In this document: piece by piece, positions 5,220-61,881 of the stretch
Numbering within the stretch: position 1 is the first letter of the stretch
Layout of the letters: every line of letters starts with the position of its first letter
From: Squalus acanthias
Taxonomy: Eukaryota
Reading direction: 5' to 3'
DNA length: 64,000 nt
Assembly: GCA_030390025.1 (NCBI GenBank)
Contig: CM059432.1
Span: forward strand, 30,630,001 to 30,694,000
Position numbers and translations under genes: made by a program
Notes under the pieces: generated by a model
Told to the model about the DNA's origin: nothing
Seen by the model: only the letters and a program-made list of their open reading frames with translations
The model's database searches: none

Positions 5220-5599
5220 CAATTGAAAAATTGGCTTGATAATCGAAAACAGAATGTAAAGACAAATAAAAAAAGCATTGGAATGGGATTGGAGGTCAGT
5301 GACTGGCTGAGTTCCATAGTGGTTAATTATGGGTCTCTTGCTATTCATACATTGTCTGACAAATATAGAGCAGGATATTTCCAGCAATAGTACAAATTGT
5401 GCTGGTGGCAGTAACTTAACTGGCCTGGTGACAAGGGGAAAGAAGACTGCTCGTATTCGAAGGAATTTGGACCAAAGAAAACATGGGCTAAGGAATAGTA
5501 AATTAAAAAGTTAATTCAAAACATATTCTAAAAATGTTTCAGAGAGTGATAAATGTTAGGAATAATCTATTAGGCAGGTTAATGGAGACAAAGAAGTCC

Positions 5600-8026
5600 T
5601 GAGCAGCGGGAGAGCAGGATAATGCCCGGAGCAGCGGGAGAGCGGGAGAAGCCCGGAGGAGCGGGAGAGTGGGAGAAGCCCGGAGGAGCGGGAGAGTGGG
5701 AGGAGCCCGGAGGAGCGGGAGAGCGGGAGGAGCCCGGAGTAGCGGGAGAGTGGGAGGAGCCCGGAGCAGCAGGAGAGCGGGAGCAGCGGGAGAGCGGGAG
5801 AGCAGGAGAGCGGGAGAGCGGGAGCAGCGGGAGAGCGGGAGAGCGGGAGAGCGGGAGAGCGGGAGAGTGGGAGAGTGGAAGAAGCCCGGAGCAGCGGGAG
5901 AGCGGGAGAGCAGGAGAAGCCCAGAGCAGCGGGAGAGCGGGAGAGCGGGAGAGCGGGAGAGCGGGAGAGAGGGAGAGCGGGAGAGCGGGAGGAGCCCGGA
6001 TCAGCGGGAGAGCGGGAGAGCGGGAGAGCGGGAGAGCGGGAGCAGCGGGAGAGCGGGAGCAGCGGGAGAGCGGGAGAGCGGGAGCAGCGGGAGAGCGGGA
6101 GAGCGGGAGCAGCGGGAGAGCGGGAGCAGCGGGAGAGCGGGAGAGCGGGAGAGTGGGAGAGCGGGAGAGCGGGAAGAGCCCGGAGCAACGGGAGAGCGGG
6201 AGCAGCAGGAGAGCGGGAGAGCGGGAGCAGCGGGAGAGCGGGAGAGCGGGAGAGCGGGAGAGCGGGAGCAGCGGGAGAGCGGGAGAGCGGGAGCAGCGGG
6301 AGAGCGGGAGAGCGGGAGCAGCGGGAGAGCGGGAGCAGCGGGAGAGCGGGAGAGTGGGAGAGCGGGAGAGCGGGAGAGCAGGAGCAGCGGGAGAGTGGGA
6401 GAGCGGGAGAGCGGGAAGAGCCCGGAGCAGCGGGAGAGCGGGAGCAGCAGGAGAGCGGGAGAGCGGGAGCAGCGGGAGAGCGGGAGCAGCAGGAGAGCGG
6501 GAGAGCGGGAGCAGCGGGAGAGCGGGAGAGCGGGAGAGCGGGAGAGCGGGAGAGCGGGAGAGCGGGAGAGCGGGAGAGCGGGAGAGCGGGAGAGCGGGAG
6601 AGCGGGAGAGCGGGAGAGCGGGAGAGCGGGAGAGCGGGAGAGCGGGAGAGCGGGAGAGCGGGAGAGCAGGAGCAGCGGAAGAGTGGGAGAGCGGGAGAGC
6701 GGGAGAGCAGGAGCAGCGGGAGAGCGGGAGAGCGGGAGAGCAGGAGCAGCGGAAGAGTGGGAGAGCGGGAGAGCGGGAGAGCAGGAGCAGCGGGAGAGCG
6801 GGAGAGCGGGAGCAGCGGAAGAGTGGGAGAGCGGGTGAGCGGGAGAGCGGGAGCAGCGGGTGAGCGGGAGAGCGGGAGCAGCGGGAGAGCGGGAGAGCGG
6901 GAGAGCGGGAGAGCGGGAGAGCAGGAGCAGCGGAAGAGTGGGAGAGCGGGAGAGCGGGAGAGCGAGAGAGCAGGAGCAGCGGGAGAGTGGGAGAGCGGGA
7001 AGAGCCCGGAGCAGCAGGAGAGCGGGAGCAGCGGGAGAGCGGGAGAGCGGGAGCAGCGGGAGAGCGGGAGAGCGGGGCAGCGGGTGAGCGGGAGAGCGGG
7101 AGAGCGGGAGCAGCGGGAGAGCGGGAGAGCGGGAGAGCGGGAGCAGCGGGAGAGCGGGAGAGCGGGAGCAGCGGGAGAGCGGGAGAGCGGGAGAGCGGGA
7201 GAGCGGGGCAGCGGGTGAGCGGGAGCAGCGGGAGCAGCGGGTGAGCGGGAGAGCGGGAGAGCGGGAGAGCGGGAGAGCAGGAGCAGCGGAAGAGTGGGAG
7301 AGCGGGAGAGCGGGAGAGCAGGAGCAGCGGGAGAGTGGGAGAGCGGGAAGAGCCCGGAGCAGCGGGAGAGCGGGAGCAGCGGGAGAGCGGGAGAGCGGGC
7401 AGCGGGTGAGCGGGAGAGCGGGAGAGCGGGAGCAGCGGGAGAGCGGGTGAGCGGGAGAGCGGGGCAGCGGGAGAGCGGGAGAGTGGGAGCAGCGGGTGAG
7501 CGGGAGCAGCGGGTGAGCGGGAGAGCGGGTGAGCGGGTGAGCGGGTGAGCGGGAGAGCGGGTGAGCAGGAGCAGCGGGAGAGCGGGAGAGCGGGTGAGCG
7601 GGAGAGCGGGAGCAGCGGGAGAGCGGGAGAGCGGGAGAGCGGGAGAGCGGGAGAGCGGGAGAGCGGGAGCAGCGGGAGAGCGGGAGAGCGGGAGAGCGGG
7701 AGAGCGGGAGAGCAGGAGCAGCGGAAGAGTGGGAGAGCGGGAGAGCGGGAGAGCGGGAGAGCAGGAGCAGCGGGAGAGCGGGAGCAGCGGAAGAGTGGGA
7801 GAGCGGGAGAGCGGGAGAGCGGGAGAGCAGGAGCAGCGGAAGAGTGGGAGAGCGGGAGAGCGGGAGAGTGGGAGAGCAGGAGCAGCGGGAGAGCGGGAGA
7901 GCGGGAGCAGCGGAAGAGTGGGAGAGCGGGTGAGCGGGAGAGCGGGAGCAGCGGGTGAGCGGGAGAGCGGGAGCAGCGGGAGAGCGGGAGAGCGGGAGAG
8001 CGGGAGAGCGGGAGAGCAGGAGCAGC

Positions 8027-8059
<33 letters not shown>

Positions 8060-9480
8060 AGAGAGCAGGAGCAGCGGGAGAGTGGGAGAGCGGGAAGAGC
8101 CCGGAGCAGCGGGAGAGCGGGAGCAGTGGGAGAGCGGGAGAGCGGGAGCAGCGGGAGAGCGGGGCAGCGGGTGAGCGGGAGAGCGGGAGAGCGGGAGCAG
8201 CGGGAGAGCGGGAGAGCGGGAGAGCGGGAGCAGCGGGAGAGCGGGAGAGCGGGAGAGCGGGTGAGCGGGAGAGCGGGAGAGCGGGGCAGCGGGTGAGCGG
8301 GAGCAGCGGGAGCAGCGGGTGAGCGGGAGAGCGGGAGAGCGGGAGAGCGGGAGAGCGGGAGAGCAGGAGCAGCGGAAGAGTGGGAGAGCGGGAGAGCGGG
8401 AGAGCAGGAGCAGCGGGAGAGTGGGAGAGCGGGAAGAGCCCGGAGCAGCGGGAGAGCGGGAGCAGCGGGAGAGCGGGAGAGCGGGGCAGCGGGTGAGCGG
8501 GAGAGCGGGAGAGCGGGAGCTGCGGGAGAGCGGGTGAGCGGGAGAGCGGGGCAGCGGGAGAGCGGGAGAGTGGGAGCAGCGGGAGAGCGGGAGAGCGGGA
8601 GAGCGGGAGAGCAGGAGAGCGGGAGAGCGGGAGAGCGGGAGAGTGGGAGAGCAGGAGAGCGGGAGAGCGGGAGAGCGGGAGAGCGAGAGAGCAGGAGCAG
8701 CGGGAGAGTGGGAGAGCGGGAAGAGCCCGGAGCAGCGGGAGAGCGGGAGCAGCGGGAGAGCGGGAGAGCGGGAGCAGCGGGAGAGCGGGAGAGCGGGGCA
8801 GCGGGTGAGCGGGAGAGCGGGAGAGCGGGAGCAGCGGGAGAGCGGGAGAGCGGGAGCAGCGGGAGAGCGGGAGAGCGGGAGAGCGGGAGCAGCGGGAGAG
8901 CGGGAGAGCGGGAGAGCGGGTGAGCGGGAGAGCGGGGCAGCGGGGCAGCGGGTGAGCGGGAGCAGCGGGAGCAGCGGGTGAGCGGGAGAGCGGGAGAGCG
9001 GGAGAGCGGGAGAGCAGGAGCAGCGGAAGAGTGGGAGAGCGGGAGAGCGGGAGAGCAGGAGCAGCGGGAGAGTGGGAGAGCGGGAAGAGCCCGGAGCAGC
9101 GGGAGAGCGGGAGCAGCGGGAGAGCGGGAGAGCGGGCAGCGGGTGAGCGGGAGAGCGGGAGAGCGGGAGCAGCGGGAGAGCGGGAGCAGCGGGAGAGCGG
9201 GTGAGCGGGAGAGCGGGGCAGCGGGAGAGCGGGAGAGTGGGAGCAGCGGGTGAGCGGGAGCAGCGGGTGAGCGGGAGAGCGGGTGAGCGGGTGAGCGGGT
9301 GAGCGGGAGAGCGGGTGAGCAGGAGCAGCGGGAGAGCGGGAGAGCGGGTGAGCGGGAGAGCGGGAGCAGCGGGAGAGCGGGAGAGCGGGAGAGCGGGAGA
9401 GCGGGAGGAGCCCGGAGTAGCGGGAGAGCGGGAGAGCGGGAGGAGCCCGGAGTAGCGGGAAGCGGGAGAGCGGGAGCAGC
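5600..9480 (+). repeat. G-rich satellite of GCGGGAGA 8-mers and GCGGGAGCA 9-mers, with 27-bp units at the ends
   Basis: Directly visible tandem array of ~3.9 kb that is almost free of T on the + strand. Confidence 0.98.
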
Positions 9481-9529
9481 GCTGGTCCTGTGAGGGGGGA
9501 AAAAAATAAAATCTAAGTGTGACGTCACA

Positions 9530-12296
9530 TACAGGGGTATTCAGTATTTAGGAAGGATCGACAAAAAAGAAAGGGAGGAGGGGTAGCATTGCTGGTAAAA
9601 GAGGGGATAAATGCAATTGAAAGGAAGGATATTAACTCAGTTAATACAGAATCTATATGGGTGGAGCTAAGAAATAGCGAGGGGCGAAAAACATTAATAG
9701 GAGTGGTATATAGGCCTCCAAATAGTAAAACAGAGGTTGGGGAGGGCATCACGAGGGAAATTAGAGAAGCGTGCAATAAGAGCACAGCTGTCATCATAGG
9801 TGACTTTAACTTACATATAGATTGGACTAGCCTAATCAGTAAAAATAATGAGGAGGAGGAATTCCTTGAGTGTTTAAGGGATGGTTATCTGGATCAATAT
9901 GTCGAGGAACCAACTCGGGAACAGGCTATATTGGACTGGGTACTGTGCAATGAGAAGGGTCTAATTAGTAATCTTGTTGTACGGGGACCCTTGGGTCAGA
10001 GCGATCATAACATGATCGATTTCTCACTCGAAATGGAGAGCGAAGAAATTGACTCAGAGACTAAGGTCCTGAATTTAAACAAGGGGAATTATGATGCCAT
10101 TAGACGGGAACTGAGTAGGTCTGATTGGACAACGTTCCTGGGAGGACTGGAGGTAGATAAACAATGGCAAGCATTTAAAGATAGAATGACAAAATTGCAA
10201 AAATTGTTTATACCAATCTGGCATAAAAGGAAATCTAAAAAGGTGATTCAACCGTGGATAACAGGGGAAATTAGAGACAGCATAAAATCCAAAGATAGGG
10301 CGTATAAAATAGCCAAAAAAAGCGCCAGAGCGGAAGATTGGGAACAGTTTAAGATAGAGCAAAGGAGGACAAAGGGCTTAATCAAGAGGGGCAAAATAGC
10401 TTACGAAAGCAAGCTGGCGGAAAATATAAAAACTAACTCCAAAAGCTTTTATAAGTATATCAAGAGGAAAAGACTGGTGAAAACCAAAGTTGGCCCATTG
10501 CAGTCAGATACGGGGGAATATATAACGGGAAATAAGGAAATGGCAGACCAACTAAATGCATACTTTGGGTCAGTCTTTACGAAGGAAGACACAAAAAACC
10601 TCCCTGGGATATCGGGTAAAATAGGGACATTTGCAAAGGAGGGACTGACGCAAATCAATATCTCTAAGGATATGGTGTTAAGGAAGCTAAAGGGATTGAA
10701 GGCGGACAAATCCCCAGGGCCTGATAACATGCATCCTAGGGTGCTGAAGGAGGTGGCCCTAGAGATAGCGGATGCACTAAGTATGATTTTTCAGAATTCA
10801 TTAGACTCGGGAACAGTGCCCATGGATTGGAGGGTAGCTAACGTTACCCCACTATTCAAAAAGGGGGGTAGGGAAAAAGCAGGTAATTACAGACCTGTAA
10901 GCCATACATCAGTTGTGGGCAAAATGCTGGAGTCCATCATTAAGGATGAAATAGCGGAGCACTTAGCAAATGGGGACAGGATAGGACAGAGTCAACATGG
11001 ATTTACAAAGGGTAAATCGTGCTTGACTAATCTATTGGAATTTTTTGAGGGAGTAACTGGTAAAATAGATGGGGGAGAGCCAGTAGATGTGGTGTACCTG
11101 GACTTCCAAAAGGCCTTCGATAAGGTCCCACATAAAAGATTAGCAGGGAAAATTGAAGCTCATGGGATAAAGGGGAAAGTATTGACGTGGATAGAGAACT
11201 GGCTGTCAGATAGAAAACAGAGAGTTGGAATAAACGGCTCATTTTCGGAATGGCAGGCAGTAACAAGTGGGGTACCACAGGGATCTGTCCTGGGTCCCCA
11301 GCTGTTCACAATTTACATTAATGACCTGGATCAGGGAGTCGGATGCAGCATTTCCAAATTTGCAGACGACACTAAACTAGGAGGGGGGGTGGGCTCAGAG
11401 GAGGAGACCAGGAAGCTCCAGAGCGATTTGGACAGACTGGGTGATTGGGCGGATAAATGGCAGATGCACTATAATGTGGACAAGTGCGAAGTTATCCACC
11501 TTGGGTGCAGGAACGGGAGGGCAAATTATTATTTAAATGGCAATAAATTGGGAGAGGGGGAAGTACAGAGAGACCTGGGTGTTCTTGTACACCAGTCACT
11601 GAAGGCGAGCATGCAGGTGCAACAGGCGGTCAAGAAGGCAAACGGTATGCTGGCCTTCATAGCAAAAGGGTTGGAATACAGGAACAGGGATACCTTGCTG
11701 CAGCTGTACAGGGCACTGGTGAGACCACACCTCGAGTACTGTGTACAGTTTTGGTCGCCTCATCTGAGGAAAGATGTTCTTGCCATGGAGGGGGTGCAGC
11801 GGCGATTCACCAGGCTGATACCAGGAATGGCGGGATTGACCTATGAGGAGAGACTATGTAGTTTAGGGATGTACACACTGGAGTTTAGAAGATTGAGAGG
11901 GGACGTCATAGAAGTGTATAAAATTCTGACAGGTCTAGACAGACTAGATGCAGAAGGAATGTTTCCCTTGGCAGGTGAGAACAGAACTAGAGGACATAAT
12001 TTAAGGATAAGGGCTAAACCATTTAGGACAGAAATGAGGGGGAATTTCTTCACTCAGAGGGTGGTGAACCTGTGGAACTCATTGCCACAGAGGGCAGTGT
12101 ACGCCAGCTCATTAAATATATTTAAGAGGGAATTGGATATATTTCTACAGGCAAAAGGGGTTAAGGGTTACGGAGAGAAGGCGGGGACGGGATACTGAAT
12201 TGGAGGATCAGCCATGATCTCATTAAATGGCGGAGCAGGCTCGAAGGGCCGGATGGCCTACTCCTGCTCCTATCTTCTATGTATCTATGTATCTAT
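9530..12296 (+). mobile_element. Young 5'-truncated CR1 insertion with 6-bp TSD GTCACA
   Basis: GTCACA at 9524-9529 and 12297-12302. Begins inside the endonuclease (IQGYSVFRKDR) and ends in (TATCTATG)n. Confidence 0.93.
9589..12198 (+). CDS. CR1 ORF2 (APE endonuclease, N-truncated, plus reverse transcriptase), uninterrupted frame
   Basis: Motifs VYRPP, GDFN, SDHN, QHGF, YLDFQKAFDKVPH, GVPQGSVLGP, FADD. The first endonuclease motifs and native start are missing, so it is probably not translated. Confidence 0.85.
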   Translation: MLVKEGINAIERKDINSVNTESIWVELRNSEGRKTLIGVVYRPPNSKTEVGEGITREIREACNKSTAVIIGDFNLHIDWTSLISKNNEEEEFLECLRDGYLDQYVEEPTREQAILDWVLCNEKGLISNLVVRGPLGQSDHNMIDFSLEMESEEIDSETKVLNLNKGNYDAIRRELSRSDWTTFLGGLEVDKQWQAFKDRMTKLQKLFIPIWHKRKSKKVIQPWITGEIRDSIKSKDRAYKIAKKSARAEDWEQFKIEQRRTKGLIKRGKIAYESKLAENIKTNSKSFYKYIKRKRLVKTKVGPLQSDTGEYITGNKEMADQLNAYFGSVFTKEDTKNLPGISGKIGTFAKEGLTQINISKDMVLRKLKGLKADKSPGPDNMHPRVLKEVALEIADALSMIFQNSLDSGTVPMDWRVANVTPLFKKGGREKAGNYRPVSHTSVVGKMLESIIKDEIAEHLANGDRIGQSQHGFTKGKSCLTNLLEFFEGVTGKIDGGEPVDVVYLDFQKAFDKVPHKRLAGKIEAHGIKGKVLTWIENWLSDRKQRVGINGSFSEWQAVTSGVPQGSVLGPQLFTIYINDLDQGVGCSISKFADDTKLGGGVGSEEETRKLQSDLDRLGDWADKWQMHYNVDKCEVIHLGCRNGRANYYLNGNKLGEGEVQRDLGVLVHQSLKASMQVQQAVKKANGMLAFIAKGLEYRNRDTLLQLYRALVRPHLEYCVQFWSPHLRKDVLAMEGVQRRFTRLIPGMAGLTYEERLCSLGMYTLEFRRLRGDVIEVYKILTGLDRLDAEGMFPLAGENRTRGHNLRIRAKPFRTEMRGNFFTQRVVNLWNSLPQRAVYASSLNIFKRELDIFLQAKGVKGYGEKAGTGY

Positions 12297-18037: not shown

Positions 18038-18188
18038 TGCACAGGAGGGAAGAGCACAGGAGGGAAGTGCACAGGAGGGAGGTACACAGGAGAGAGGTGC
18101 ACAGGAGGGAGGTACACAGGAGGGAGGTACACAGGAGGGAGGTGCACAGGAGGGAGGTGCACAGGAAGGAGGTACACAGGAGGGAGGT
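18038..18188 (+). repeat. 15-bp minisatellite (consensus CACAGGAGGGAGGTR), about 10 copies
   Basis: Directly visible tandem repeat. Confidence 0.95.
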
Positions 18189-18228
18189 CAAGGCCGCAGG
18201 AGTCACTACCCATGCCACAAGGTTTATA

Positions 18229-18362
18229 TTGTGGAGATGCCGGCGTTGGACTGGGGTGGACAAAAATGAGAAGTCGCACAACACCAGGTTATAGTCCAAC
18301 AGATTTATTTAATTTTACAAGCTTTCGAAGCAGTTCGCTCCTTCATCAGGTAAGTTAGCAAT
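18229..18362 (-). mobile_element. Tiny Penelope-terminus insertion (family 2) with 7-bp TSD GTTTATA
   Basis: GTTTATA at 18222-18228 and 18363-18369. Removing the insert restores transposase YPCHKVY|RQRLSFHDL. Sequence is shared with 50194-50287. Confidence 0.75.
18315..18353 (-). ncRNA. Minimal type I hammerhead ribozyme with intact core
   Basis: Minus strand reads TTAC-CTGATGA-A-GGAGC-GAACT-GCTTC-GAAA-GCTT-GTAA. Stem I TTAC/GTAA, stem II GGAGC/GCTTC (one G-U pair), palindromic AGCT stem III. Confidence 0.75.
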
Positions 18363-19983
18363 GTTTATAGACAGAGGCTCAGCTTCCATGACCTCAGGTC
18401 AATAGTGCTTCCATAGGCTGAGGTTGTCACTTCAGGTGGTGGTAGACATCTGCAACCTCCTAGAAGAAGACCTGCTGGACCTGGCAACCATTACCCTCAA
18501 TTTTTTTGCCTCTGGTTCCTTCCAGGGCGCTACCGGAGACATTCTGAGGGTCTCGCAGTCCGCTGCACATAAGTGCATAAGGCAGGTGACGGATGGATTG
18601 TTTGCCAGGGCTGGGAGTTATGTAAACTTCCTCTGTGATGACAATAGCCAGAATTAGCGGACATTCCAATTCGCAGCCTTGGCTGGATTCCCAAAGGTAT
18701 AGGGTGCCATCGATTGCACACATGTGGCAGTCTGAGCACTACCACAGCAGCTAGGAGTTTTTATAAACCGCAAGAGATATTCAACCATCAAAGCACAGCT
18801 GGTGTGCAACCACCAAGAAAATGTTTGTGCAGGTCTGCGCCAGATTCCCTGGGAGCTGTCATGATGCATTCATACTGCAGCAGTCCAACATGCTAGACCT
18901 TTTCTTTCCAGAAAGCATGCTTAAGTGCTACTCTTAGGAGACAAGGGATACACCCTTCAAACTTGGCTCATAACACCTGTGATGAACCCCACCAATGAGG
19001 CGCAGGAGCGCTACAACAGGACCACCAGATGTGTCATAGAGTAAGCCATCGAAATGTTGAAAGTGTGCTTCAGGTGCCTAGATAGGTTTGGAGGTGCATT
19101 TCAGTACTCACCAGCGAGAGTGTCCAGAATAATAGTGGTGTGCTGCATCCTGCACAACATTGCACAGCAGAGAGGATTGCAGGTGGAGAAGGATGAAGGG
19201 GCATATCATGCATCTCCAGATGAGGAGAACATAAAGGAGGAGGAGGAGGAGGAGGAGGAGGAAGACGGGGCACCCATTGACAGACCAGCCACTTACATTG
19301 CTGCCCGGGATGCCATAATATCACGAAGGTTCACCTAGTGTTGACTCACACAGCAAAAATAAGAGGTGAAATCCTGCAGTCCTCTCCCACCACCAGAACC
19401 ACCTCCAACCCCTCCCTTTGCATTAAACAGTCCTTCAACCACTAATCCACCCATTGCCCGTCTGCCCAATGGGTCTCATCATGTATTGACATTTATCATG
19501 AAACAAGGTCAAGTTGGTACTCGGGATGTAATAATGGTCAAGACTTGAAAGTGGTGCTAATCAATACATTTTATTTGGCATTATAGAAAAAGGAAAACTT
19601 AACAACGATACAGACCGGTGAGTGAGTGACGGTCAGGTATTCACCCCAGGCGTGGTTGGCGATAGCGGAGGAGGTGAGCAGCAGGAGCATTGTGCCCAGG
19701 TCTTGGTTGCAATGCAGGAAGTGGTTTAATGACCTAATCTGTTTAATGCAGTGCATTCAGTGAGGGTGACTATGAGACAGATGCATCACCTTGCATAAGG
19801 ACTGGGATAAGTGGCAATGGTGGCTAGATAAATGGGGAGGTGATAAAGTGCACAGAAAGTGAAGGCTGGGTGCTGCTGAAAGTTGAGTGGGTGTGAGGAG
19901 TGATGCGATGGAGAATGCTTGGCAAGACAGAGTGAAAGGGATTGGGGGCTTAACCCAAAGGATGTAGGTGAATCAGCAAAGGT

Positions 19984-24210: not shown

Positions 24211-25234
24211 ATTGCCTGGCATTTAGTAGTGTGAATGTTAGCTGTCTCTTGTTGGCCCAAGACTGGATGTTGACCAGGTCCTGCTTTGGGTTAGTATGAG
24301 CTGCTTCACTATCAGAGGACTCCTGAATGGAGATGGATAATGTGGAATCATTGGCAAGTGTAATGTATTTAGTATGAGCATGTTCAGTTCGCTCTGGCCT
24401 AGTAAACAAGCACTTAGACTAGCAACTCATTGTGTCTCTGTCCTTCATTTGTTCTACCCACAGATATTACATTTTGGTGATGAGAATGGGATCCCAAAGC
24501 CATTTTTAAGGATCATGGAAGGACACAGTGTTCAACCTTCGAGGGGAAAAGTTTAAGGTGAATTTGTGACACCTAAACTGAATTTTTGAGATGTTTTACT
24601 GTTAATGCTCATGCAGAATCATCTGTGCTTTGCCTTTACGTGTATGCATACACGGCAACAGTGGTGTTGATTCTCACAGGTACACAGATAGCATGCTGAG
24701 TCACTGTTTGACGGGATCGAGACAATCATGGCCGCGCCTACGGGATTCATTGGAAGCCTCGGCATGTATGACTGAGCTCGCAAACCAGTCAGTTCTCACA
24801 TTGAGCGGATGGAGATATTTTTTAGGGCCAATAACATTGTTGAGACCGAAGGTGCAGATGAGAATGTTCAAGCTCAAAATAAAGTAATTCGTGAACGGAA
24901 AAAAGCAATTTTTCTAACGGAGATCGGGCCAGCTGTCTATGGAAGCACGAAAGCATGTTCACAGACAGTTATGAAGGCATCACTGGGTATGACGTGCATA
25001 TCCACATCACATCCAACACGAAGTCTGTCTATTGTAAGGCAAGGCCAGTCCCCTATGCGTTGAAAAGTCAGGTGGAGGAAGAGCTAGAGAAACTCAGAGA
25101 GAACGGAATGCTAGTAGAAACTGACAAAAGTGAATGGGCTACCCCGATTGTGGTAGTGCCCAAAGCAGACAAAACTGTACGCTTGTGCGGTGACTACAAA
25201 GTTACTATCAACCAAGCAGTTGATGATGAGCAGT

Positions 25235-25453
25235 AAAAAGAAAAGAAAGACTTACATTTCTATAGTGCTTTTCACGACCACTGGACATCTCAAAGTGCTT
25301 TACAGCCAATGAAGTACTTTTGAAGTGGAGTCACTGTTGTAATTTAGGAAACGTGGCAGCCAACTTGCGCACAGCAAGGTCCCACAAACAGCAATGTGAT
25401 AATGACCAGATAATCTGTTTTTGTTATGTTGGTTGAGGGATAAATATTGGCCA
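25235..25453 (-). mobile_element. SINE family A 3' half inserted in the Gypsy RT
   Basis: Matches 3493-3710 and splits RT between DDEQ and YP-like codons. Confidence 0.85.
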
Positions 25454-27065
25454 CCCGTTATCTACATCCCACGATTTGTATGCAGCACTCTCTGAGTCAA
25501 AGGTTTTCTCCAAGCTTGACCTGTCGCATGCTCACGCTCAGCTGAATGTTAACAAAGAGAGTCAATAGTATCTCACTAACTACACACACAAGTGACTGTA
25601 CTCATACACCAAGTTGCTGTATGGTGTAAAGTCCTCCCCCAAAATCTTCCAGGCTACGATGGATAAGATTTTGCAATGAATTCCAAATTGCTTATGCAAT
25701 CAAGACGATGTGCTGATCGCAACAAGCAGCAAGGAAGATAATCTAGAAGTGTTAGATTTAGTGCCTCAAAGGTTGAATTCCCACAATGTCAAATTGAAAA
25801 GGAGCAAATGTGCTTTTGTGCAGCCCAAGGTTGTGCACCTTGGTCTGAAAGTTGATGCAAATGGCTTGCAACCAGTGAAAGAAAAGGTTAGATGCTGTCA
25901 TCAATGCTCCAAAGCCACGGAACATGTCTGAGTTAAGATCTTTCCTTGGAATGGTCCAGTACTATGTACGTTTCTTACTTGAGTTAGCGACCATGTTAGC
26001 TCCATTGCACGAGCTCATCAAGAAGGATGTCCAGTGGAAGTGGACAAAAGCACAACTGGAAGCTTACGATGCTTATAAGAGAAGTCTCTCTAGCAATGCT
26101 TTACTTGTGCACTACGACACAGAGCGTGAGCTTAAGTTAGAATGTGATGCTTCCAGTTAAGGTGTGGGAGCTGTTATAAGCCACAAAATGGATGACGGCC
26201 AAGAGAAACCAATCGAGTTCGCATCGCGAATCCTCACAAAGAGCGAAAGAAACTACATGCAAATTGAAAAGGAAGCACTCGCCATAGTGTTTGGAATCAA
26301 GAAATTTCAACAGTTCCTGAGCGGCAGAAAGTTTGCCCTGATAACCGATCACAAACCGTTCCTAGCAATATTGGAGCCCAAATCTGCCAACCCTGCAATG
26401 GCTGCATCAAGAATGCAATGTTGGGTAGTGTTGTTGTCACAATATGACTACGCGATTGAATATCGTACTTCAAAGCAAAACACAATTGAAGATGCCTTGT
26501 CCAGGTTGCCACATGAGGACTCGTGTTGGGAGTGAAGGTAAGATTTTCACACTAGGTGCAGTTGACAAAGACTTTCCCATGAATGCAACTGAGATTGAAA
26601 ATGAGACTCAAAAGGACTCAATACTGAAAAGAGTGTATGAAAACACCTTGAATGGATGGACTGATCAGTGTCTAGACACAGAGTTGAAACCATTACATAA
26701 CGGTCGTACTGAATTGTCTTGTGAGCAAGTTTGTATCAAGTGGGGAAACAGAGTGGTAGTACCTACTTCTTTGAGAGATAGAATTCTAGCTGAACTTCAT
26801 ACTGAACATCCAGGAATCATCAGTATGAAATCAATTGCAAGAAGCTTTGTTTATTGCCCTGGATTGGACAGTGAGCGTGAGTTACTTGTCAGCAAATACA
26901 GCGTTTGCTAAAATTGCAGAAACAAGCCACCCAAAACTCCACTACAACCCTGGTCACGGCCAAGTAGACCTTTTCAGAGAGTACATGTAGACTTCTTCGA
27001 GAAAGCAAATGATTATTTCCTGGCACTTGTAGATAGTCACTTAAAGTGGATTGAAGTGAAACACA

Positions 27066-43711: not shown

Positions 43712-44395
43712 GTGAGTACAGGGATCCAGGAGGTAGTGTTGGAGGAGCCGCAGCCCTTGCTCTTGTCCAACAGGTTCGAGGCTCTTACTCCCTGTGTGGA
43801 TAGGAGCGGGGACTGCAGGGAGGATGAGCAACCTGGCCACAGCACCGTGGTAAGGGGGGCCATTCAAGTGGGGGGAGTAAAAAGAAATGTTGTAGTGGTA
43901 GGGGATAGTATCATTAGGGGGATAGATAGGGTTCTTTGCAGCCAAGAGCGAGAGTCCCGAAGGCTGTGTTGCCTGCCCGGTGCCAGGGTTAAGGACATCT
44001 CCTCTGGGCTGGAGAGAAACTTGGAGTGGGAGGGGGAGGATCCAGTTGTCGTGGTCCATGTTGGTACCAATGACATAGATAGGACAAGGAAAGAGGTTCT
44101 GCTGAGGGAGTTTGAGCAGCTAGGGGCCAAATTAAAAAGCAGAACCTCGAGGGTAATAATCTCTGGATTACTACCTGAGCCACGAGCAAATTTGGCTAGG
44201 GTAAATAAAATCAGGGAGTTGAATGCGTGGCTCAAAGACTGGTGTGGGAAAAATGGGTTTTGCTTCTTGGGACACTGGCACCAGTACTGGGGCAGGAGAG
44301 AGCTGTTCCGTTGGGACGGACTTCACTTGGCCAGTGCTGGGACTAGTGTCCTGGCGAATCGAATAACTAGGGCTGTGGAGAGGGCTTTAAACTAA
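43712..44395 (+). CDS. CR1 ORF1 C-terminal SGNH/GDSL esterase domain (N-truncated)
   Basis: VVVGDSIIRG, CLPGA, VHVGTND and DGLHL blocks are all present in one frame. Confidence 0.85.
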   Translation: MSTGIQEVVLEEPQPLLLSNRFEALTPCVDRSGDCREDEQPGHSTVVRGAIQVGGVKRNVVVVGDSIIRGIDRVLCSQERESRRLCCLPGARVKDISSGLERNLEWEGEDPVVVVHVGTNDIDRTRKEVLLREFEQLGAKLKSRTSRVIISGLLPEPRANLARVNKIRELNAWLKDWCGKNGFCFLGHWHQYWGRRELFRWDGLHLASAGTSVLANRITRAVERALN

Positions 44396-44433
44396 TTAGT
44401 GGGGGGGAGGTTTCAAGAGAGCAAAAAATAAAA

Positions 44434-47385
44434 ATGACAACAGAGAGGGTCATAGACATAGGTAGCAGTAGGGGAATCACAAATCAGAGCGTGGCAGGAA
44501 GGGACAAAGTGTGTGGAGTAAAAGGTAAAGTGGTAAAAAGTGAAAAAGCAGGAACTAAGTGCCACAAAGCATATTTGAAAGTTCTCTATCTGAATGCATG
44601 TAGCATTCGTAACAAAATAGACGAGTTAATGGCACAAATAACTACATATGGTTATGATATTGTGGCCATTACAGAAACATGGCTGCAGGGTGACAATGCC
44701 TGGGAATTAAACATACCAGGTTATTTAACGATCAGGAAGGACAGGCAGGAAGGAAGGGGAGATGGGGTGGCTATGTTAATAAAGGAAGGAATCACTGTAA
44801 TACAGAGTAATGATATTGGGTCAAAAAATCATGATAATGAAACAGTTTGGGTGGAGATAAGGAATAATAAGGGGAAAAAAACACTAGTGGGCGTAGTCTA
44901 TAGGCCTCCGAACAGTTGCAACTCTGTTGGACGGAGTATCAATCAGGAAATAGTTGAGGCATGTAATAAGGGAACATCTATAATTATGGGGGATTTTAAC
45001 TATCATATTAATTGGACAAATCAAATGGGGCAGGGCTGCCTTGAGGATGAGTTCTTTGAGTGTATTAGGGATGGGTTTCTTGAGCAGTATGTAACTGAAC
45101 CGACCAGAGGGCAAGCAACCTTAGATCTGGTCCTGTGTAACGAGACAGGATTAATTAAAAATGTCCTAGTAAAGGATCCCCTTGGAATGAGTGACCATAA
45201 CATGGTTGAATTCCATATTCAATTAGAGGGTGAGAAGGTTGGATCTCAAACAAGCGTGCTAAGCTTGAATAAAGGAGACTATGAAGGTATGCGAGTGGAA
45301 TTGAGTAGAGTGGATTGGGAAAATAGATTAAAGGGTAAGACGACACATGATCAGTGGTGTACATTCAAGGAGTTATTTTACAACTTCCAAAAAATATATA
45401 TTCCACTGAAAAGAAAAGGGTGTAAAAGAAAGGACAGTCATCCGTGGCTAAGTAAAGAAATTAAGGATAGTATTCGACTAAAAACAAGGGCATATAAGGT
45501 AGCGAAATCTAGTGGGAGGACAGAGGATTGGGAAAAATTTAAAAGGCAGCAAAAAATAACAAAAAGATTGATTAAGAAAGGGAAGATAGATTATGAAAGT
45601 AAATTAGCAAAAAATATAAAAACAGATAGTAAGAGTTTTTATAGTTATATAAAAAGAAAAAGGGTGGCTAAAGTAAATGTTGGTCCCTTAGAGGATGAGA
45701 CCGGGAAATTAATGGTGGGAAATATGGAGATGGCAAAAACACTGAATGAATATTTTGTATCAGTCTTTACAGTAGAGGACACTAAGAATATCCCAACACT
45801 GGACAAACAGGGGGCTATAGGGGGAGAGGAGCTAAACACGATCAAAATCACTAAGGAAGTGGTACTCGGTAAAATAATGGGACTCAAGGCGGATAAATCA
45901 CCTGGACCTGATGGCTTACATCCTAGAGTCTTGAAGGAAGTGGCGGTAGGGATTGTAGATGCATTGGTAATAATTTTTCAAAACTCCCTGGATTCCGCTA
46001 AGGTCCCGGCAGACTGGAAAACTGCTAATGTAACACCCTTATTTAAAAAGGGCAGTAGACAGAAGGCTGGTAACTATAGACCGGTTAGCCTAACATCTGT
46101 GGTAGGTAAAATTTTGGAGTCCATTATTAAGGAAACAGTAACAGGACATTTGGATAATCATAATTTAATAGGACAAAGTCAGCATGGTTTTACGAAGGGG
46201 AAGTCATGTTTGACAAATTTGCTGGAGTTCTTTGAGGAAGTAACATATAGAGTGGATAAAGGGGAACCAGTGGACGTAGTGTATTTAGACTTCCAAAAGG
46301 CATTTGACAAGGTGCCACACAAAAGATTATTGCTTAAGGTAAAAAATCACGGGATTGGGGGTAATATTCTGGCATGGATAGAGGATTGGCTATCTAACAG
46401 AAAGCAAAGAGTTGGGATAAATGGTTCATTCTCAGACTGGCAATCAGTAACTAGTGGTGTTCCACAGGGGTCAGTGCTGGGTCCCCAACTCTTTACAATC
46501 TATATTAACGATTTGGAGGAAGGGACCAAGTGTAACATATCAAAATTTGCAGATGATACAAAGATGGGAGGGAAAGTAGTGAGTGAAGAGGACATAAAAA
46601 ACCTGCAAGGGGACATAGACAGGCTAAGTAAGTGGGCAGAGATTTGGCAGATGGAATACAACACTGGAAAGTGTGAGGTGATGCACTTTGGCAGGAAAAA
46701 TCCTAGAGCAATTTATTATCTTAATGGCAAGAAACTGGAGAGTACTGAAGTGCAAAGGGATCTGGGGGTCCTGGTGCACGAAACTCAAAAGGTTAGTATG
46801 CAGGTGCAGCAAGTGATTAAGAAGGCAAATGGAATGTTGGCTTTCATTGCTAGGGGGATAGAATATAAAAATAGGGAGGTATTGCTTCAGTTGTACAAGG
46901 TATTGGTGAGACCGCACCTGGAATACTGCATACAGTTTTGGTGTCCTTACTTAAGGAAAGACATCCTTGCTCTCGAGGCAGTGCAAAAAAGGTTCACTCG
47001 GTTAATCCCGGGGATGAGGGGGTGGTCATATGAGGAGAGGTTGGGTAGATTGGGACTCTACTCATTGGAGTTCAGAAGAATGAGAGGCGATCTTATTGAA
47101 ACATATAAGATTGTGAAGGGGTTGGATCGGGTGGATGCGGGCAGGATGTTCCCGATGACGGGTGAGACTAGAACTAGGGGACATAGTCTTAGAATAAGGG
47201 GCTGCTCTTTCAAAACTGAGATGAGGAGGAACTACTTCACTCAGAGGGTGGTAGGTCCATGGAATATGCTGCCACAAAAAGCTGTAGAAGCTACATCATT
47301 AAATAAATTTAAAACAGAAATAGACAGTTTCCTAGAAGTAAAGGGCATTAAGGGTTACGGGGAGCGGGCAGGAATTTGGACATGA
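44434..47385 (+). CDS. CR1 ORF2, full-length 983 aa endonuclease/reverse transcriptase
   Basis: ATG start and no stops. Motifs YLNACS, ITETWL, VYRPP, GDFN, SDHN, YRPVSLTS, YLDFQKAFD, GVPQGSVLGP, FADD. Confidence 0.93.
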   Translation: MTTERVIDIGSSRGITNQSVAGRDKVCGVKGKVVKSEKAGTKCHKAYLKVLYLNACSIRNKIDELMAQITTYGYDIVAITETWLQGDNAWELNIPGYLTIRKDRQEGRGDGVAMLIKEGITVIQSNDIGSKNHDNETVWVEIRNNKGKKTLVGVVYRPPNSCNSVGRSINQEIVEACNKGTSIIMGDFNYHINWTNQMGQGCLEDEFFECIRDGFLEQYVTEPTRGQATLDLVLCNETGLIKNVLVKDPLGMSDHNMVEFHIQLEGEKVGSQTSVLSLNKGDYEGMRVELSRVDWENRLKGKTTHDQWCTFKELFYNFQKIYIPLKRKGCKRKDSHPWLSKEIKDSIRLKTRAYKVAKSSGRTEDWEKFKRQQKITKRLIKKGKIDYESKLAKNIKTDSKSFYSYIKRKRVAKVNVGPLEDETGKLMVGNMEMAKTLNEYFVSVFTVEDTKNIPTLDKQGAIGGEELNTIKITKEVVLGKIMGLKADKSPGPDGLHPRVLKEVAVGIVDALVIIFQNSLDSAKVPADWKTANVTPLFKKGSRQKAGNYRPVSLTSVVGKILESIIKETVTGHLDNHNLIGQSQHGFTKGKSCLTNLLEFFEEVTYRVDKGEPVDVVYLDFQKAFDKVPHKRLLLKVKNHGIGGNILAWIEDWLSNRKQRVGINGSFSDWQSVTSGVPQGSVLGPQLFTIYINDLEEGTKCNISKFADDTKMGGKVVSEEDIKNLQGDIDRLSKWAEIWQMEYNTGKCEVMHFGRKNPRAIYYLNGKKLESTEVQRDLGVLVHETQKVSMQVQQVIKKANGMLAFIARGIEYKNREVLLQLYKVLVRPHLEYCIQFWCPYLRKDILALEAVQKRFTRLIPGMRGWSYEERLGRLGLYSLEFRRMRGDLIETYKIVKGLDRVDAGRMFPMTGETRTRGHSLRIRGCSFKTEMRRNYFTQRVVGPWNMLPQKAVEATSLNKFKTEIDSFLEVKGIKGYGERAGIWT

Positions 47386-49200: not shown

Positions 49201-50187
49201 CTTTTAGAACCCAAGCTGTAATCCTACCTTTTTATCCCATGTCTCCCCATCTAATTTTGGACTCTTTGCAAAAGATGGCAAACCTACGTAACCATGGCTC
49301 CCTGCCAGAGCCACAGTTGTACCCACCAAAATATCCAGAATTTTCCATATGGATACATATTCAAAATATGGCTGTGGTGTGTTTGGAACATTTTCCATTG
49401 AGGTCTGCTTGGAACTGGGACAAAAATCTGTTTTTACCAAGTGTGCACTCTTTGCTTTCTACAATGGTCAGTTATAATCTGAGACAAGACTGGATCCGGA
49501 TAAAGGATAAATAAGGGGCACTACTCTGGTCAGTGTTCCTTTGAAATAAACTATCCTACAAGCTTATCCTCCTCCCTCCATCTTCACTGTGTTGAAACCA
49601 AGACTCCTATTGTTATTGTATCTTTCCCATAAGCTCAAACCAGTCTTCCCTTCTTCGTATAATTTTCTGGCTTTTAAAACCCAACCTTGGCATCACCGCA
49701 CCACTACTTTCTGATTTACCTGGTCTTCATTTCTACTGTTTTCACCCATGCTGATCCAGCACTATGGACCTTGGCCAGTTCCCTAGGCTGTTAAATAATA
49801 AGGCTTTTCATGGAAACTTGGATCTATATCTAAAGTTGGGTCTAGATATACAAGTATATCTCTACTTGAAGCAGTTGGAAATGAAATAATCCCAACCATC
49901 AGATCATCTCATTAAACAAAATGGATTCAAGTGCAGTGCATTTGGAATCAATTGGTTGTTGGGAAAATGCCCTTAAAGCAAGCAAGTAAGCAAGACTTGC
50001 ATTTCTATAGCGCCTTTCACGACCTCAGGACATCCCAAAGCGCTTCACAGCCAATTAAGTACTTTTTGAAGTGTAGTCACTTTTGTAATGGAGGAAAAAA
50101 CATTTTCTTGTTAGTAACTTGCATCAGCTATTTTTGTATATTACTTCAGAAACACTTGCCACAGGAGTTAGTGCTTAACCTATTGTT

Positions 50188-50344
50188 CATGATGCGGAGA
50201 TGCCGGTGTTGGACTGGGGTGGACAAAAGTGAGAAGTCGCACAACACCAGGTTATAGTCCAACAGGTTTATTTGAAATCACAAGCTTGTGATTTCAAATA
50301 AAGCTGTTGGACTATAACCTGGTGTTGTGCGACTTCTCACTTTT
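50188..50344. mobile_element. Penelope-terminus fold-back insertion flanked by the 13-bp direct repeat TTAACCTATTGTT
   Basis: Homologous to 18232-18324. 60+60 bp palindrome at 50225-50344. Direct repeats at 50175-50187 and 50343-50355. Confidence 0.8.
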
Positions 50345-50616
50345 AACCTATTGTTGTCATTGTCTCTGTTGTGTTATATCTACAGCAGAGTCTCACAGAT
50401 ATCATTCTCTTAAGGTTGTCACAGGCAGACGTGACCTCATGTTAATGTATCAGTAAAAAAAACCACAGCCAACAATGTAGCACTCCCTCTGCCATACACT
50501 GAAGTGCCACTCTCGATTCAGTGGTCAAGTCCTGTATTGAGGTGTGAACCCCAAATTACCTTACTCAGAGATGTGAGTGCTGCCAAGTGAACTAATCTGA
50601 CACTTATGTGCTATAT

Positions 50617-58729: not shown

Positions 58730-60231
58730 TTTATTCATCACCCTGGTTCAATGAGGAGTGTAGAAGAGCATTCTGGGAGCAGCACCATGCGTACCAGAAA
58801 ATGAGATGCCAACCTGGTGAAGCTACAACACAGGAATACGTGCATGCTAAACAGCAGAAGCAGCATGCTATAGACAGAGCTAAGCAATCCCACAACCAAC
58901 AGTTCAGATCAAAGCTCTGCAGTCCTGCCACATCCAGTTGTGAATGGTGGTGGACAATTAAACAACTAATGGGAGGAAGAGGATCCATGAACATTCCCAT
59001 TCTCAATGATGGAAGAGCCTAGCATGTGAGTGAAAAAGACAAGGCTAAAGCGTTCGCAGCCATCTTCAGCTAGAAGTGCCAAGTGGATGCTCCATCTCAG
59101 CCTCTTCCTGAGGTCCCCACCATCACACATGCCAGTTTTCAACGAATTTGATTCACTCCACGTGATATCAAGAAACAGCTGTGCACACTGGATACAGCAA
59201 AGGCTATGGGCCCCGACAACTTCCTGGCTGTCGTGCTGAAGACTTGTGATCCAGAACTAGCCACGCCTGTAGCCAAGCTGTTCCAGTACAGCTACAAACT
59301 TGCATCTACCCAACAAATTGGAAAATTGCCCAGGTATGTCCGAGCCACCAAAAACCAGGACAAATCTAATCTGGCCAATTACCGCCCCATCAGTCTATTC
59401 TCAATCATCAGCAACGTGATGGAAGGTATCATCATCAGTGTTATCAAGCGGCTCTTACTCACTGATAGCCTGCTCACTGATGCCCAGTTTGGGTTCCGCC
59501 AGGACCACTTGTTTTTGTTTTTATTCGTTTATGGGATGTGGACGTCGCTGGCAAGGCCAGCATTTATTGCCCATCCCTAATTGCCCTTGAGAAGGTGGTG
59601 ATGAGCCACCTTCTTGAACCGCGGCAGTCCGTGTGTTCCCGACCTCATTACAGCCTTGGTCCAAACAAGGAAAAAAGAGATGAAATCCAGAGGTGAGGTG
59701 AGAGTGTGGCATCAAGAGCCCTAGTAAAATTGAAGTCAATGGGGATCAGGGGAAAAACTCTCCATTGGCTGGAGTCATAGCTAGTACAAAGGAAGATGGT
59801 TGTGGTTGTTGGAGGCCAATCATCGCAGCCCAGACATCACTGCAGGAGTTCCTCAGGGCAATATCCTAGTCCCAACCATCTTCAGCTGCTTCATCAATAA
59901 CCTTTCCTCCATCATAAGGTCAGAAGTGGGGATGTTTACTGATGATTACACAGTGTTCAGTTCCATTCGCAATTCCTCTGATAATGAAGCAGCCCATGGC
60001 TGCATGCAGCAAGACCTGGACAACATCCAGGCTTGAGCTGATAAGTGGCAAGTAACATTCACGTCACACAAGTACCAGGCAATGGCAATCTCCAACAAGA
60101 AAGACTAACCATGTCCCCATGAAATTCAATGACATAACCATTGTTGAATTCCCCCACCATCAACATCCTGGGGATCACCATTGACCAGAAACTGAACTGG
60201 ACCAGCCACATACTGTGACTACAAGAGCAGG
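58730..60231 (+). mobile_element. LINE-B fragment containing a reverse-oriented LINE-B tail at ~59510-59635
   Basis: GPDNFLAVVLK, NYRPISL, QFGFRQ, GVPQG and FTDD motifs. Confidence 0.88.
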
Positions 60232-61741
60232 ATGCTGTGTGACTTGGAGGGGAACTTGGAGGTGATGGTGTTCTCATGCGCCTGCTGCCCTTGTCCTTCT
60301 AGGTGGTAGAGGTTGCAGGTTTGGGAGGTGCTGTTGAAGAAGCCTTGGCGAGTTGCTGCAGTGCATCTTGTAGATGGTACACACTGCAGCCACGGTGCGC
60401 TGGTGGTCGAGGGTATGAATGTTTCAGGTGGTGAATGGGGTGGCAATCAAGTGGGCTGCTTTGTCCTGAATGGTGTCGAGCTTCTTGAGTGTTGTTGGAG
60501 CTGCACTCATCCAGGCAAGTGGAGAGTATTCCATTACACTCCTGACTTGTGCCTTATAGATGGTGGAAAGGCTTTGAGGAGTCAGCAGGTGAGACAGACG
60601 CCGCAGAATACCCAGCCTCTGACCTGCCCTTGTAGCCACAGTATTTATGTGGCTGGTCCAGTTAAGTTTCTGGTCAATTGTGACCCCCAGGATCTTGATG
60701 GTGTGGGATTCGGCAATGGTAATGCCATTGAATATCAAGGGATGGTGGTTAGACTCTCGCTTGTTGGAGATAGTCATTGCCTGGCACTTATGTGGTGCGA
60801 ATGTTACTTGCCACTTATCAGCCCAAGCCTGAATGTCGTCCAGGTCTTGCTGCATGCGTGCACAGACTGCTTCATTATCTGAGGAGTTGTGAATGGAACT
60901 GAGCATTGTGCAATCATCAGTGAACATCCCCAATTCTGACCTTATGATGGAGGGAAGGTCATTGATGAAGCAGCTGAAGATGGTTGGGCCCAGGACACTG
61001 CCCTGACAAACTCCTGCAACGATGTCATGGGGCTGAGATGATTGGCCTCCAACAACCACAACCATCTTCCTTTGTGCTAGGTATGACTCCAGCCAGTGGA
61101 GAGTTATTCCCCGATTCCCATTGATTTCAATTTTACTAGGGCTCCTTGATTCCACACTCGGTCAAATGCTGCCTTGATGTCAAGGGCAGTCACTCTCACC
61201 TCACCTCTGGAATTCAGCTCTTTTGTCCATGTTTGGATCAAGGCTGTAATGAGGTCTGGACCCGAGTGATCCTGGCAGAACCCAAACTGGGCATCAGTGA
61301 GCAGGTTATTGGTGAGTAAGTGTCACTTGATAGCACTGTCGACAACACCTTCCATCACTTTGCTGATGATTGAGAGTAGACTGATGGGGCTATAATTGGC
61401 CGGATTGGATTTGCCCTGTTTTTTGTCGACTGGACTTACCTGGGCAGTTTTCCACATTGTCAGGTAGATGCCAGTGTTGTAGCTGTACTGGAACAGCTTG
61501 GCTAGAGGCGCGACTAGTTCTGGAACACAAGTCTTCAGCATGACAGCCGGGATGTTATTGGGGCCCATAGCTTTTACTGTATCCAGTGTGCTCAGCTTTT
61601 TCTTGACATCACATGGAGTGAATCGAATTGGCTGAAGACTAGCTTCTGTGATGGTGGGGATCTCAGGAGGAGGCCGTGATGGATTAACCATTCGGCACTT
61701 CTGGCTGAAGATGGTTGCAAATGCTTCAGCCTTGTCTTTTG
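60228..61741 (-). mobile_element. LINE-B internal segment, reverse orientation
   Basis: ORFs 61323-61778 and 60424-61155. Colinear with 1275-2560. Confidence 0.9.
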
Positions 61742-61881
61742 TGAGAGTACCTTCAGAACATGGACTGTAGTGGTTCAAGAAGGTGGCTCACTACCATCTT
61801 CTAAAGGGCAATTAGGGATAGGCAATAATTGATCGACTTGCCAGTGATGCCCTCATCTGCCGAATGAATAAATTAAAAAAA
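61742..61881 (+). mobile_element. LINE-B 3' tail, forward orientation
   Basis: GTACCTTCA...GGTTCAAGAAGGTGGCTCAC...GGGCAATTAGGGATAGGCAATAA followed by an A-run. Confidence 0.8.

Follow-up and report, generated by a model that had tools for sequence, protein, structure and literature searches.

Near 50.2 kb of the 64-kb stretch of DNA analysed here (the window) lies a spacer-less palindrome, whose centre matches the palindromic stem of a hammerhead motif that a related copy carries elsewhere in the window. The locus raises the question of what kind of insertion it represents, and whether its fold was set by ribozyme cleavage, as the initial annotation proposed, or by other events during or after reverse transcription.

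Architecture of the Palindrome Locus

Direct comparison of 50225-50284 with 50285-50344 bears out the initial description of the arms, which pair as reverse complements in 59 of their 60 bases, without any spacer and centred on AAG/CTT. The sole mismatched pair is 50266/50303. The perfect palindrome core measures 18 + 18 bp, against longest arms of 6-10 bp in 30 shuffled windows, and AAGCTT is the only perfect 6-bp palindrome within 50189-50287, where about 1.4 would be expected by chance. The direct repeat reported around the palindrome proved to be exact and 13 bp long (rough chance 2e-6), its right copy overlapping the right arm by TT. On the left side, 36-37 extra nucleotides without a mirror (50188/9-50224), which the initial annotation does not mention, separate the repeat from the arm. 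Folding predictions likewise agree with the near-perfect hairpin that had been anticipated upon transcription (-98.2 kcal/mol for the palindrome region). The locus holds no ORF and consists of two stubs only. Its features are as follows:

50175-50187, + strand: target-site duplication, left copy, 13 bp, AT-rich; exact direct repeat
50188-50224, - strand: Penelope-like element (PLE) "tail" of 36-37 nt, the outer 3' end of the element, on one arm only; outside the palindrome, also in the 18.2-kb copy, family ends piling up at 50187-50189
50225-50284, - strand: left arm, pLTR segment downstream of the hammerhead, antisense; matches the 18.2-kb copy
50282-50287, no strand: AAGCTT junction, equivalent to hammerhead A14, stem III (AGCU) and U17, as numbered from the 18.2-kb copy
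50285-50344, + strand: right arm, the same pLTR segment by reverse complementarity, sense, to the tail-less terminus; last TT common to the target, family tail-less ends at 50345
50343-50355, + strand: target-site duplication, right copy; exact direct repeat

This structure is likely a 155-bp head-to-head insertion of two PLE ends inside 13-bp target duplications. It shows the features of PLE (EN+) insertions, namely an inverted pLTR, a tail of 30-40 nt at one end, and an AT-rich target-site duplication; tails of this length are described in several accounts of these elements (PMC3846280; PMC8557442; PMC11167929). Its identity as a PLE head-to-head stub is highly probable; no PLE protein was recognized by eye among the 74 long frames of the window. 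The initial assignment to a PLE end with a minimal hammerhead and an inverted pLTR thus finds support in the pLTR match, the tail, the duplication, and the hammerhead motif of the 18.2-kb copy.

Two other classes were considered and rejected. A MITE, i.e., a DNA transposon, does not account for the 36-37 nt without a mirror at the left end or for the solo, non-inverted occurrence of the same sequence at 18229-18358. A non-LTR retrozyme is built of head-to-tail tandem units with a complete hammerhead in each (bioRxiv 10.64898/2026.07.22.740005), whereas the arms at 50.2 kb are head-to-head and the hammerhead core is absent.

Head-to-head PLE insertions with a tail and a junction palindrome have been known since 2013. 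In the Pen2 and Pen3 elements of Adineta vaga, the inverted pLTR is ~37 bp shorter than the tailed one and the junction overlap is short; palindromes of 18-38 bp occur at the head-to-head junction, target duplications measure 8-10 bp, and self-priming was the favoured origin (Arkhipova et al., 2013; PMC3846280). The 50.2-kb locus has in common with them the shorter inverted pLTR, the tail, the junction palindrome, and the target duplication. It differs in consisting of two stubs without an ORF and in having a junction tied to hammerhead stem III, a motif that was unknown in 2013. The same inverted architecture has also been described for Naiad elements, which lack canonical hammerheads (PMC8557442). 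The locus is a well-preserved, clean example of a described structure and one of very many stubs.

The Solo Copy at 18.2 kb and Its Hammerhead

The left arm and tail of the 50.2-kb locus match 18230-18324 at 91.6% over 95 bp. The initial annotation had linked the arm to this hammerhead-bearing element and had reported the catalytic core to be missing from the palindrome. The 18.2-kb copy comprises two features:

18229-18358, - strand: solo copy of this pLTR, truncated at its 5' end, which has the tail and a complete minimal hammerhead; identified by alignment, reaches 40 nt past the cut site
18315-18353, - strand: minimal type I hammerhead motif with 4-bp stem I, CUGAUGA, unpaired A, 5-bp stem II, GAAA, palindromic AGCU, and cleavage triplet CUU

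This copy has its own 11-bp duplication with one mismatch (18218-18228 and 18359-18369). In hammerhead numbering, C3 is at 18349 and G12 at 18326, followed by A14-A15.1-G15.2-C16.2-U16.1-U17, with H17 at 18319 and G1.1 at 18318. Stem I pairs UUAC with GUAA, and the five pairs of stem II follow an unpaired A. Minimal hammerheads of metazoan PLEs have an unpaired base after A9, a G10.1-C11.1 pair, and a palindromic 15.2-16.2; their stem III forms only in dimers, and opposite-strand hammerhead pairs occur 100-700 bp apart (Cervera and De la Peña, 2014; PMC4209133). Judged by motif and stems alone, the 18.2-kb sequence fits this class and is a putative ribozyme. Compared with these minimal hammerheads, the 50.2-kb copy has retained no more than stem III and one strand of stem I, the 3' one, and by its sequence cannot be a ribozyme.

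Searches with Rfam returned no match at gathering score in the 64-kb window and, on 18200-18420, no hammerhead at E up to 10 but one chance match. The predicted lowest-energy dimer fold of the motif differs from the catalytic fold. With respect to stem I, the 18.2-kb strands lie at 18315-18318 and 18350-18353 (UUAC/GUAA), the 50.2-kb arms read GUG(A), and family loose ends in the read contigs described below carry CAC or UCAU upstream. Changes on one strand are matched on the other so that the two still pair, a hint that the fold is under selection. The 18.2-kb copy sits at the start of a decayed transposase frame with several stops (18359-19350), presumably of Harbinger type by its family motifs, and a 15-bp tandem repeat lies next to it at about 18040-18190.

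Position of the Fold Relative to the Predicted Cut

In standard numbering, hammerhead cleavage falls after H17. The predicted scissile bond lies at 50287/50288 on the right arm and at 50282/50281 on the left arm. The palindrome had been described as folded exactly at the cleavage site; its centre is indeed AAG/CTT within stem III, but its dyad is that of the dimer-only stem, 3 nt upstream of the predicted cut. All six AAGCTT bases belong to the 5' cleavage product and both arms run through them, which indicates that the template was uncut at the junction. Copying of ribozyme-cleaved RNA would place the 5' end of the element on the base that follows H17, which is not where the insertion begins. 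A cDNA made on such RNA would lack AAGCTT, and two cDNAs of this kind would join as CAC/GTG. The 18.2-kb copy runs through the cut as well and was also counted in favour of an uncut template. On these sequence grounds the 50.2-kb insertion was probably copied from uncut RNA. The idea that reverse transcription ran to a ribozyme-made 5' end is not borne out, all six bases being retained as in uncut RNA. The direct link that had been drawn between ribozyme cleavage and the inverted terminus is not supported at this locus; AAGCTT is kept, and most displayed junctions of the family, described below, lie elsewhere.

Family-Wide Ends and Junctions in Read Contigs

Contigs from four of the 23 read runs listed (X3, X6, X7, and X12, from organisms A, B, C, and D, respectively) were aligned to 50095-50615 at a likeness of 82. 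The aligned contigs numbered 14,095 (X3), 2,624 (X6), 2,619 (X7), and 2,307 (X12), and 9,729 of the 14,095 X3 contigs were less than 99% alike to the 50.2-kb copy. Summed contig depth of the family exceeds a million, compared with ~8 on the flanks, a measure of great abundance and not of copy number.

The loose-end rows displayed (24 of 513) fall mainly into three groups, i.e., tail ends, tail-less ends, and continuations into the hammerhead core. Tail ends with varied flanks accumulate at 50187-50189 (68 + 70 + 85 contigs in X3) and, in organisms B and C, also at 50196. Tail-less ends with varied flanks occur at 50345 (56 contigs in X3), 50337, or 50334. Loose ends at 50282/50287 continue into the hammerhead core in all four runs (61 + 36, 41 + 17, 24 + 5, and 36 + 8 contigs), and the hammerhead motif is present in loose-end consensus rows of each run. 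None of the 24 displayed rows ends at the cut (50281/50288).

All 15 displayed joints, of 42, run from the left arm into the right one. Both arms end 8-57 nt downstream of the cut in 14 of these, and in the remaining one the right arm starts at AAGCTT; positions are measured against the 50.2-kb copy and not against the sequence of each copy itself. The joints were called at a likeness of 82% and have sides only 19-28 letters long, whereas the tool advises caution under 95% and 30 letters. Within those terms seven share no letter, three share one, and five share two. Several have 1-7 extra letters between the arms. Displayed joints skip at least 32 letters; junctions near the centre appear as gaps instead, and those upstream of AAGCTT are invisible on this reference.

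The palindrome centre is crossed by 5 of the 32 displayed contigs (of 21,932, in a biased display), from organisms A, B, and D. X3 record 14 has a different flank, a tail-less start, and a net gain of five letters. Net losses are found in X3 record 15 (7 letters), X6 record 23 (2 letters), and X12 record 7 (8 letters); the gaps in X12 record 7 and X3 record 15 would represent junctions at the cut itself if AAGCTT is what they remove. X12 record 6 ends 15 letters past the centre, as would be expected of a perfect hairpin in a 31-mer assembly; on one side of the centre, both this contig and X6 record 23 extend for less than 31 letters, so that they serve as hints only. As judged from the displayed rows, family junctions appear to recur near the hammerhead without being confined to it. 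Given the five centre-crossing contigs, a junction hot spot at the hammerhead may exist.

Hammerhead Families of Other Animals

Metagenome contigs were scanned for hammerheads with an intact core, a requirement that excludes AAGCTT-centred copies, and yielded at least 122 matches at 121 or more loci. Among the matches listed, 53 have a stem II of at least four pairs, and 52 of those have enough upstream DNA; six of these 52 matches, in five loci, have an inverted partner. Relative to the cut, these partners start at -63 (the limit of the query), -31, -30, -22, and +39 among the matches listed, so that none of the five starts at the cut, in a scan that cannot contain AAGCTT-centred copies. A 21-letter word of the present family was found in no stretch of the metagenome and viral contigs.

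The hammerhead of locus L065 is similar to the 18.2-kb one (84% over 38 nt) and lies ~750 bp after an open reading frame. Among the Atlas clusters nearest to this frame (score 0.97) are two in which 31-34% of the members carry GIY-YIG; Pfam gave no match for it or for the frames of L062. In L062 (886-1000), a marine metagenome contig, a hammerhead and downstream pLTR visibly similar to the family end stand between bacterial-looking frames, and the contig is possibly chimeric or animal DNA. Head-to-head hammerhead pairs of unrelated families are present at L055 (1201-1282), L069, and L049, with junctions just upstream of or inside the core. L025 and L026 lie on one contig, 2,365 nt from each other and equally oriented; each is a hammerhead whose stem I has 8 bp, and together they may represent a PLE unit or a tandem of the retrozyme kind.

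Origin of the Head-to-Head Structure

The reading that we favour, at about even probability, is that two cDNAs were primed at two staggered nicks on uncut RNA, from two start sites, and annealed at AAGCTT. The endonuclease would nick both target strands 13 nt apart; one primer would start at the tail end and the other at a tail-less site 36-37 nt inside. Both cDNAs would reach or pass stem III, and their ends would pair over 6 bp at AAGCTT, after which flaps would be trimmed and gaps filled. The part of the hammerhead would be to offer microhomology through its palindromic dimer stem, catalysis not being needed. On this model the mirror arm ends at the second terminus of the family because two RNA start sites exist.

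Several observations are consistent with two primed cDNAs. On its outer sides the insertion stops at the same two termini as the family at large, the one with the tail at 50187-9 and the one without it at 50345. Annealing of two cDNA ends at AAGCTT is computed at -6.2 kcal/mol, compared with +3.2 for a terminal fold-back. The displayed joints, with 0-2 shared letters and in some cases extra letters, look like end joining. For PAc, a Poseidon-type PLE from Anolis carolinensis, nicks are made in both strands and extended, two sites at which reverse transcription starts delimit the tail, and the protein is a predicted dimer (Frangieh et al., 2024; PMC11167929). PAc and the present family are alike in architecture, with a pLTR hammerhead, an AC-rich start region ~90 nt past the cut, a tail, and an AT-rich target; the tail end at 50.2 kb lies 93-94 nt past the cut and the anole start region 85-92 nt past it (111-118 minus 26, PMC11167929). 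The inverted junction is not treated in the passages of the anole study consulted here.

L1 provides a further parallel, in that both nicks prime cDNA, the inverted structure lies within target duplications, and the junction is microhomologous or end-joined. Twin priming of L1 yields non-overlapping parts of one RNA, and "dual priming" by two RNAs has also been proposed (Meyer et al., 2010; PMC2837659). Unlike the products of twin priming, both arms here are the same segment, which needs two RNA copies or self-copying, and poly(A) is absent. Against the two-cDNA model, dual priming and snap-back yield the same sequence, and one locus cannot separate them. Likewise, the 59/60 identity of the arms, in a diverse family, would be expected if one arm served as template for the other, and equally if two transcripts came from a single source.

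Self-priming on uncut RNA is the main alternative, though a less probable one. The tail-primed cDNA would reach stem III, fold back, and copy 57-60 nt, its end being resolved at the tail boundary by the endonuclease or through TT microhomology with the second nick. To explain the palindromes at PLE junctions, self-priming has been put forward, in that case with an antisense template (PMC3846280), and in R2 insertions the 3' end of the cDNA is seen to prime synthesis on itself before the 5' junction forms (PMC11371274). The near-identical arms and the TT at the right junction also agree with it. However, the AGCT loop would be closed by a stem of only 1 bp, at a predicted +3.2 kcal/mol, and 7 of the 15 displayed joints, of 42, share no letter. 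An extra rule would be needed for copying to halt at the tail-less terminus seen across the family, a position that follows directly from two RNA start sites; mirror arms in R2 would, by comparison, have no second fixed terminus. The snap-back on AGCT envisaged at first may have occurred on uncut RNA and fits the arms, but is energetically the poorer option in these computations.

Later deletion is improbable. It supposes a longer head-to-head insertion with two hammerheads that lost its centre by slippage or microhomology repair between AAGCTT direct repeats. A 6-bp direct repeat at the base of a hairpin is a plausible deletion site, but repair usually breaks perfect palindromes instead of making them. 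Arms and duplication carry almost no mutations, so that there would have been little time for such a loss, and no longer allele is seen among the displayed contigs of organism A. Twin-hammerhead head-to-head copies of the kind required do exist, as at L055 and in the opposite-strand pairs of PMC4209133.

Less credible still is the cleavage-linked sequence of events, which starts with ribozyme cleavage, continues with reverse transcription up to the 5' end so created, and closes with a snap-back of the cDNA at AGCT. The centre is only 3 nt from the predicted cut, the enzyme might jump the nick onto a still-paired 5' product, and two centre-crossing contigs (X12 record 7 and X3 record 15) are short of 7-8 letters. 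Against this, AAGCTT is absent from the 3' cleavage product and cut-RNA cDNAs would give CAC/GTG. The displayed loose ends (24 of 513) include no row at 50281/50288, and inverted partners in hammerhead families of other animals start at the cut in 0 of 5 loci among the matches listed. For the anole element, cleavage is reported to be dispensable for insertion in vitro, with no RNA-seq ends at the cut (PMC11167929).

Reality of the Insertion and the Empty Site

In organism A, both flank junctions are present at the flank depth of ~8, i.e., single-copy, in contigs that reach only 21 and 25 letters into the insert, below the 31-letter rule. A contig of 3,023 letters from organism D, at a depth of 12.4, aligns to the right flank from exactly 50343 onwards; left-flank depth is equal to it. 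Organism D, a relative, thus appears to carry the empty 13-bp site, which would predict this alignment start, the skip row not being among the rows displayed. Flank contigs end at 50182 and 50374 in organism B and at 50374 in organism C, which has no left-flank cover, with 24-28 unaligned letters. Another repeat or rearrangement may occupy the same site (50183-50373) in these two organisms.

An assembly or chimeric-read fold-back artefact is the least credible explanation, since a fold-back read would mirror the flank, whereas here unique DNA resumes beyond the 13-bp duplication, which is exact, there is a one-base difference between the arms, the tail is missing from one of them, and both flank junctions occur at single-copy depth, even though no listed contig spans the centre, the two junction contigs enter the insert so shortly, and X3 may be the source sample. 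The exact duplication, one-sided tail, arm mismatch, and contigs of organisms A and D indicate that the insertion is real and an assembly artefact unlikely.

Implications for PLE Insertion

A wider and rather doubtful reading is that stem III of PLE hammerheads acts as a junction hot spot or a template-dimerisation signal. Two RNAs of the element would be kept antiparallel by stem III and so offered to a dimeric RT-endonuclease, with priming at both nicks. The two cDNAs would come to a halt at the hammerhead and meet there, which would create sharp junction hot spots at stem III for uncut RNA and at the cut site for cut RNA. If true, the ribozyme would gain a structural role, and head-to-head insertions with a single tail would be explained. 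Hints come from the 50.2-kb locus and from the 5 of 32 displayed centre-crossing contigs, one of which ends 15 letters past the centre; the scattered joints and the inverted structures of Naiad elements without canonical hammerheads (PMC8557442) speak against it. No statement linking PLE junctions to hammerhead stem III was found in the open-access library searched.

The junction sequence itself separates uncut RNA, in which AAGCTT is kept, from cut RNA, which gives CAC/GTG. A genome-wide count in this abundant family could test the part of hammerhead cleavage in PLE insertion, and the same count could test whether the inverted pLTR originates by self-priming or from two primed cDNAs.

Other Features of the Window

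The 64-kb window is rich in LINE remnants. Long stop-free LINE frames occupy 9523-12198 (891 aa) and 44371-47385 (1,004 aa), both presumably CR1-like, and a 4-kb purine-rich tandem array at about 5580-9520 precedes the first of them. At 58800-61880, two LINE fragments of opposite orientation, with ~650 nt between them, make up a large inverted repeat that is imperfect, most of its blocks being 81-89% complementary; these are probably independent copies. Polyprotein fragments of an LTR element lie at 24895-26911, presumably Gypsy-like by their RT, RNase H, and integrase-like motifs.
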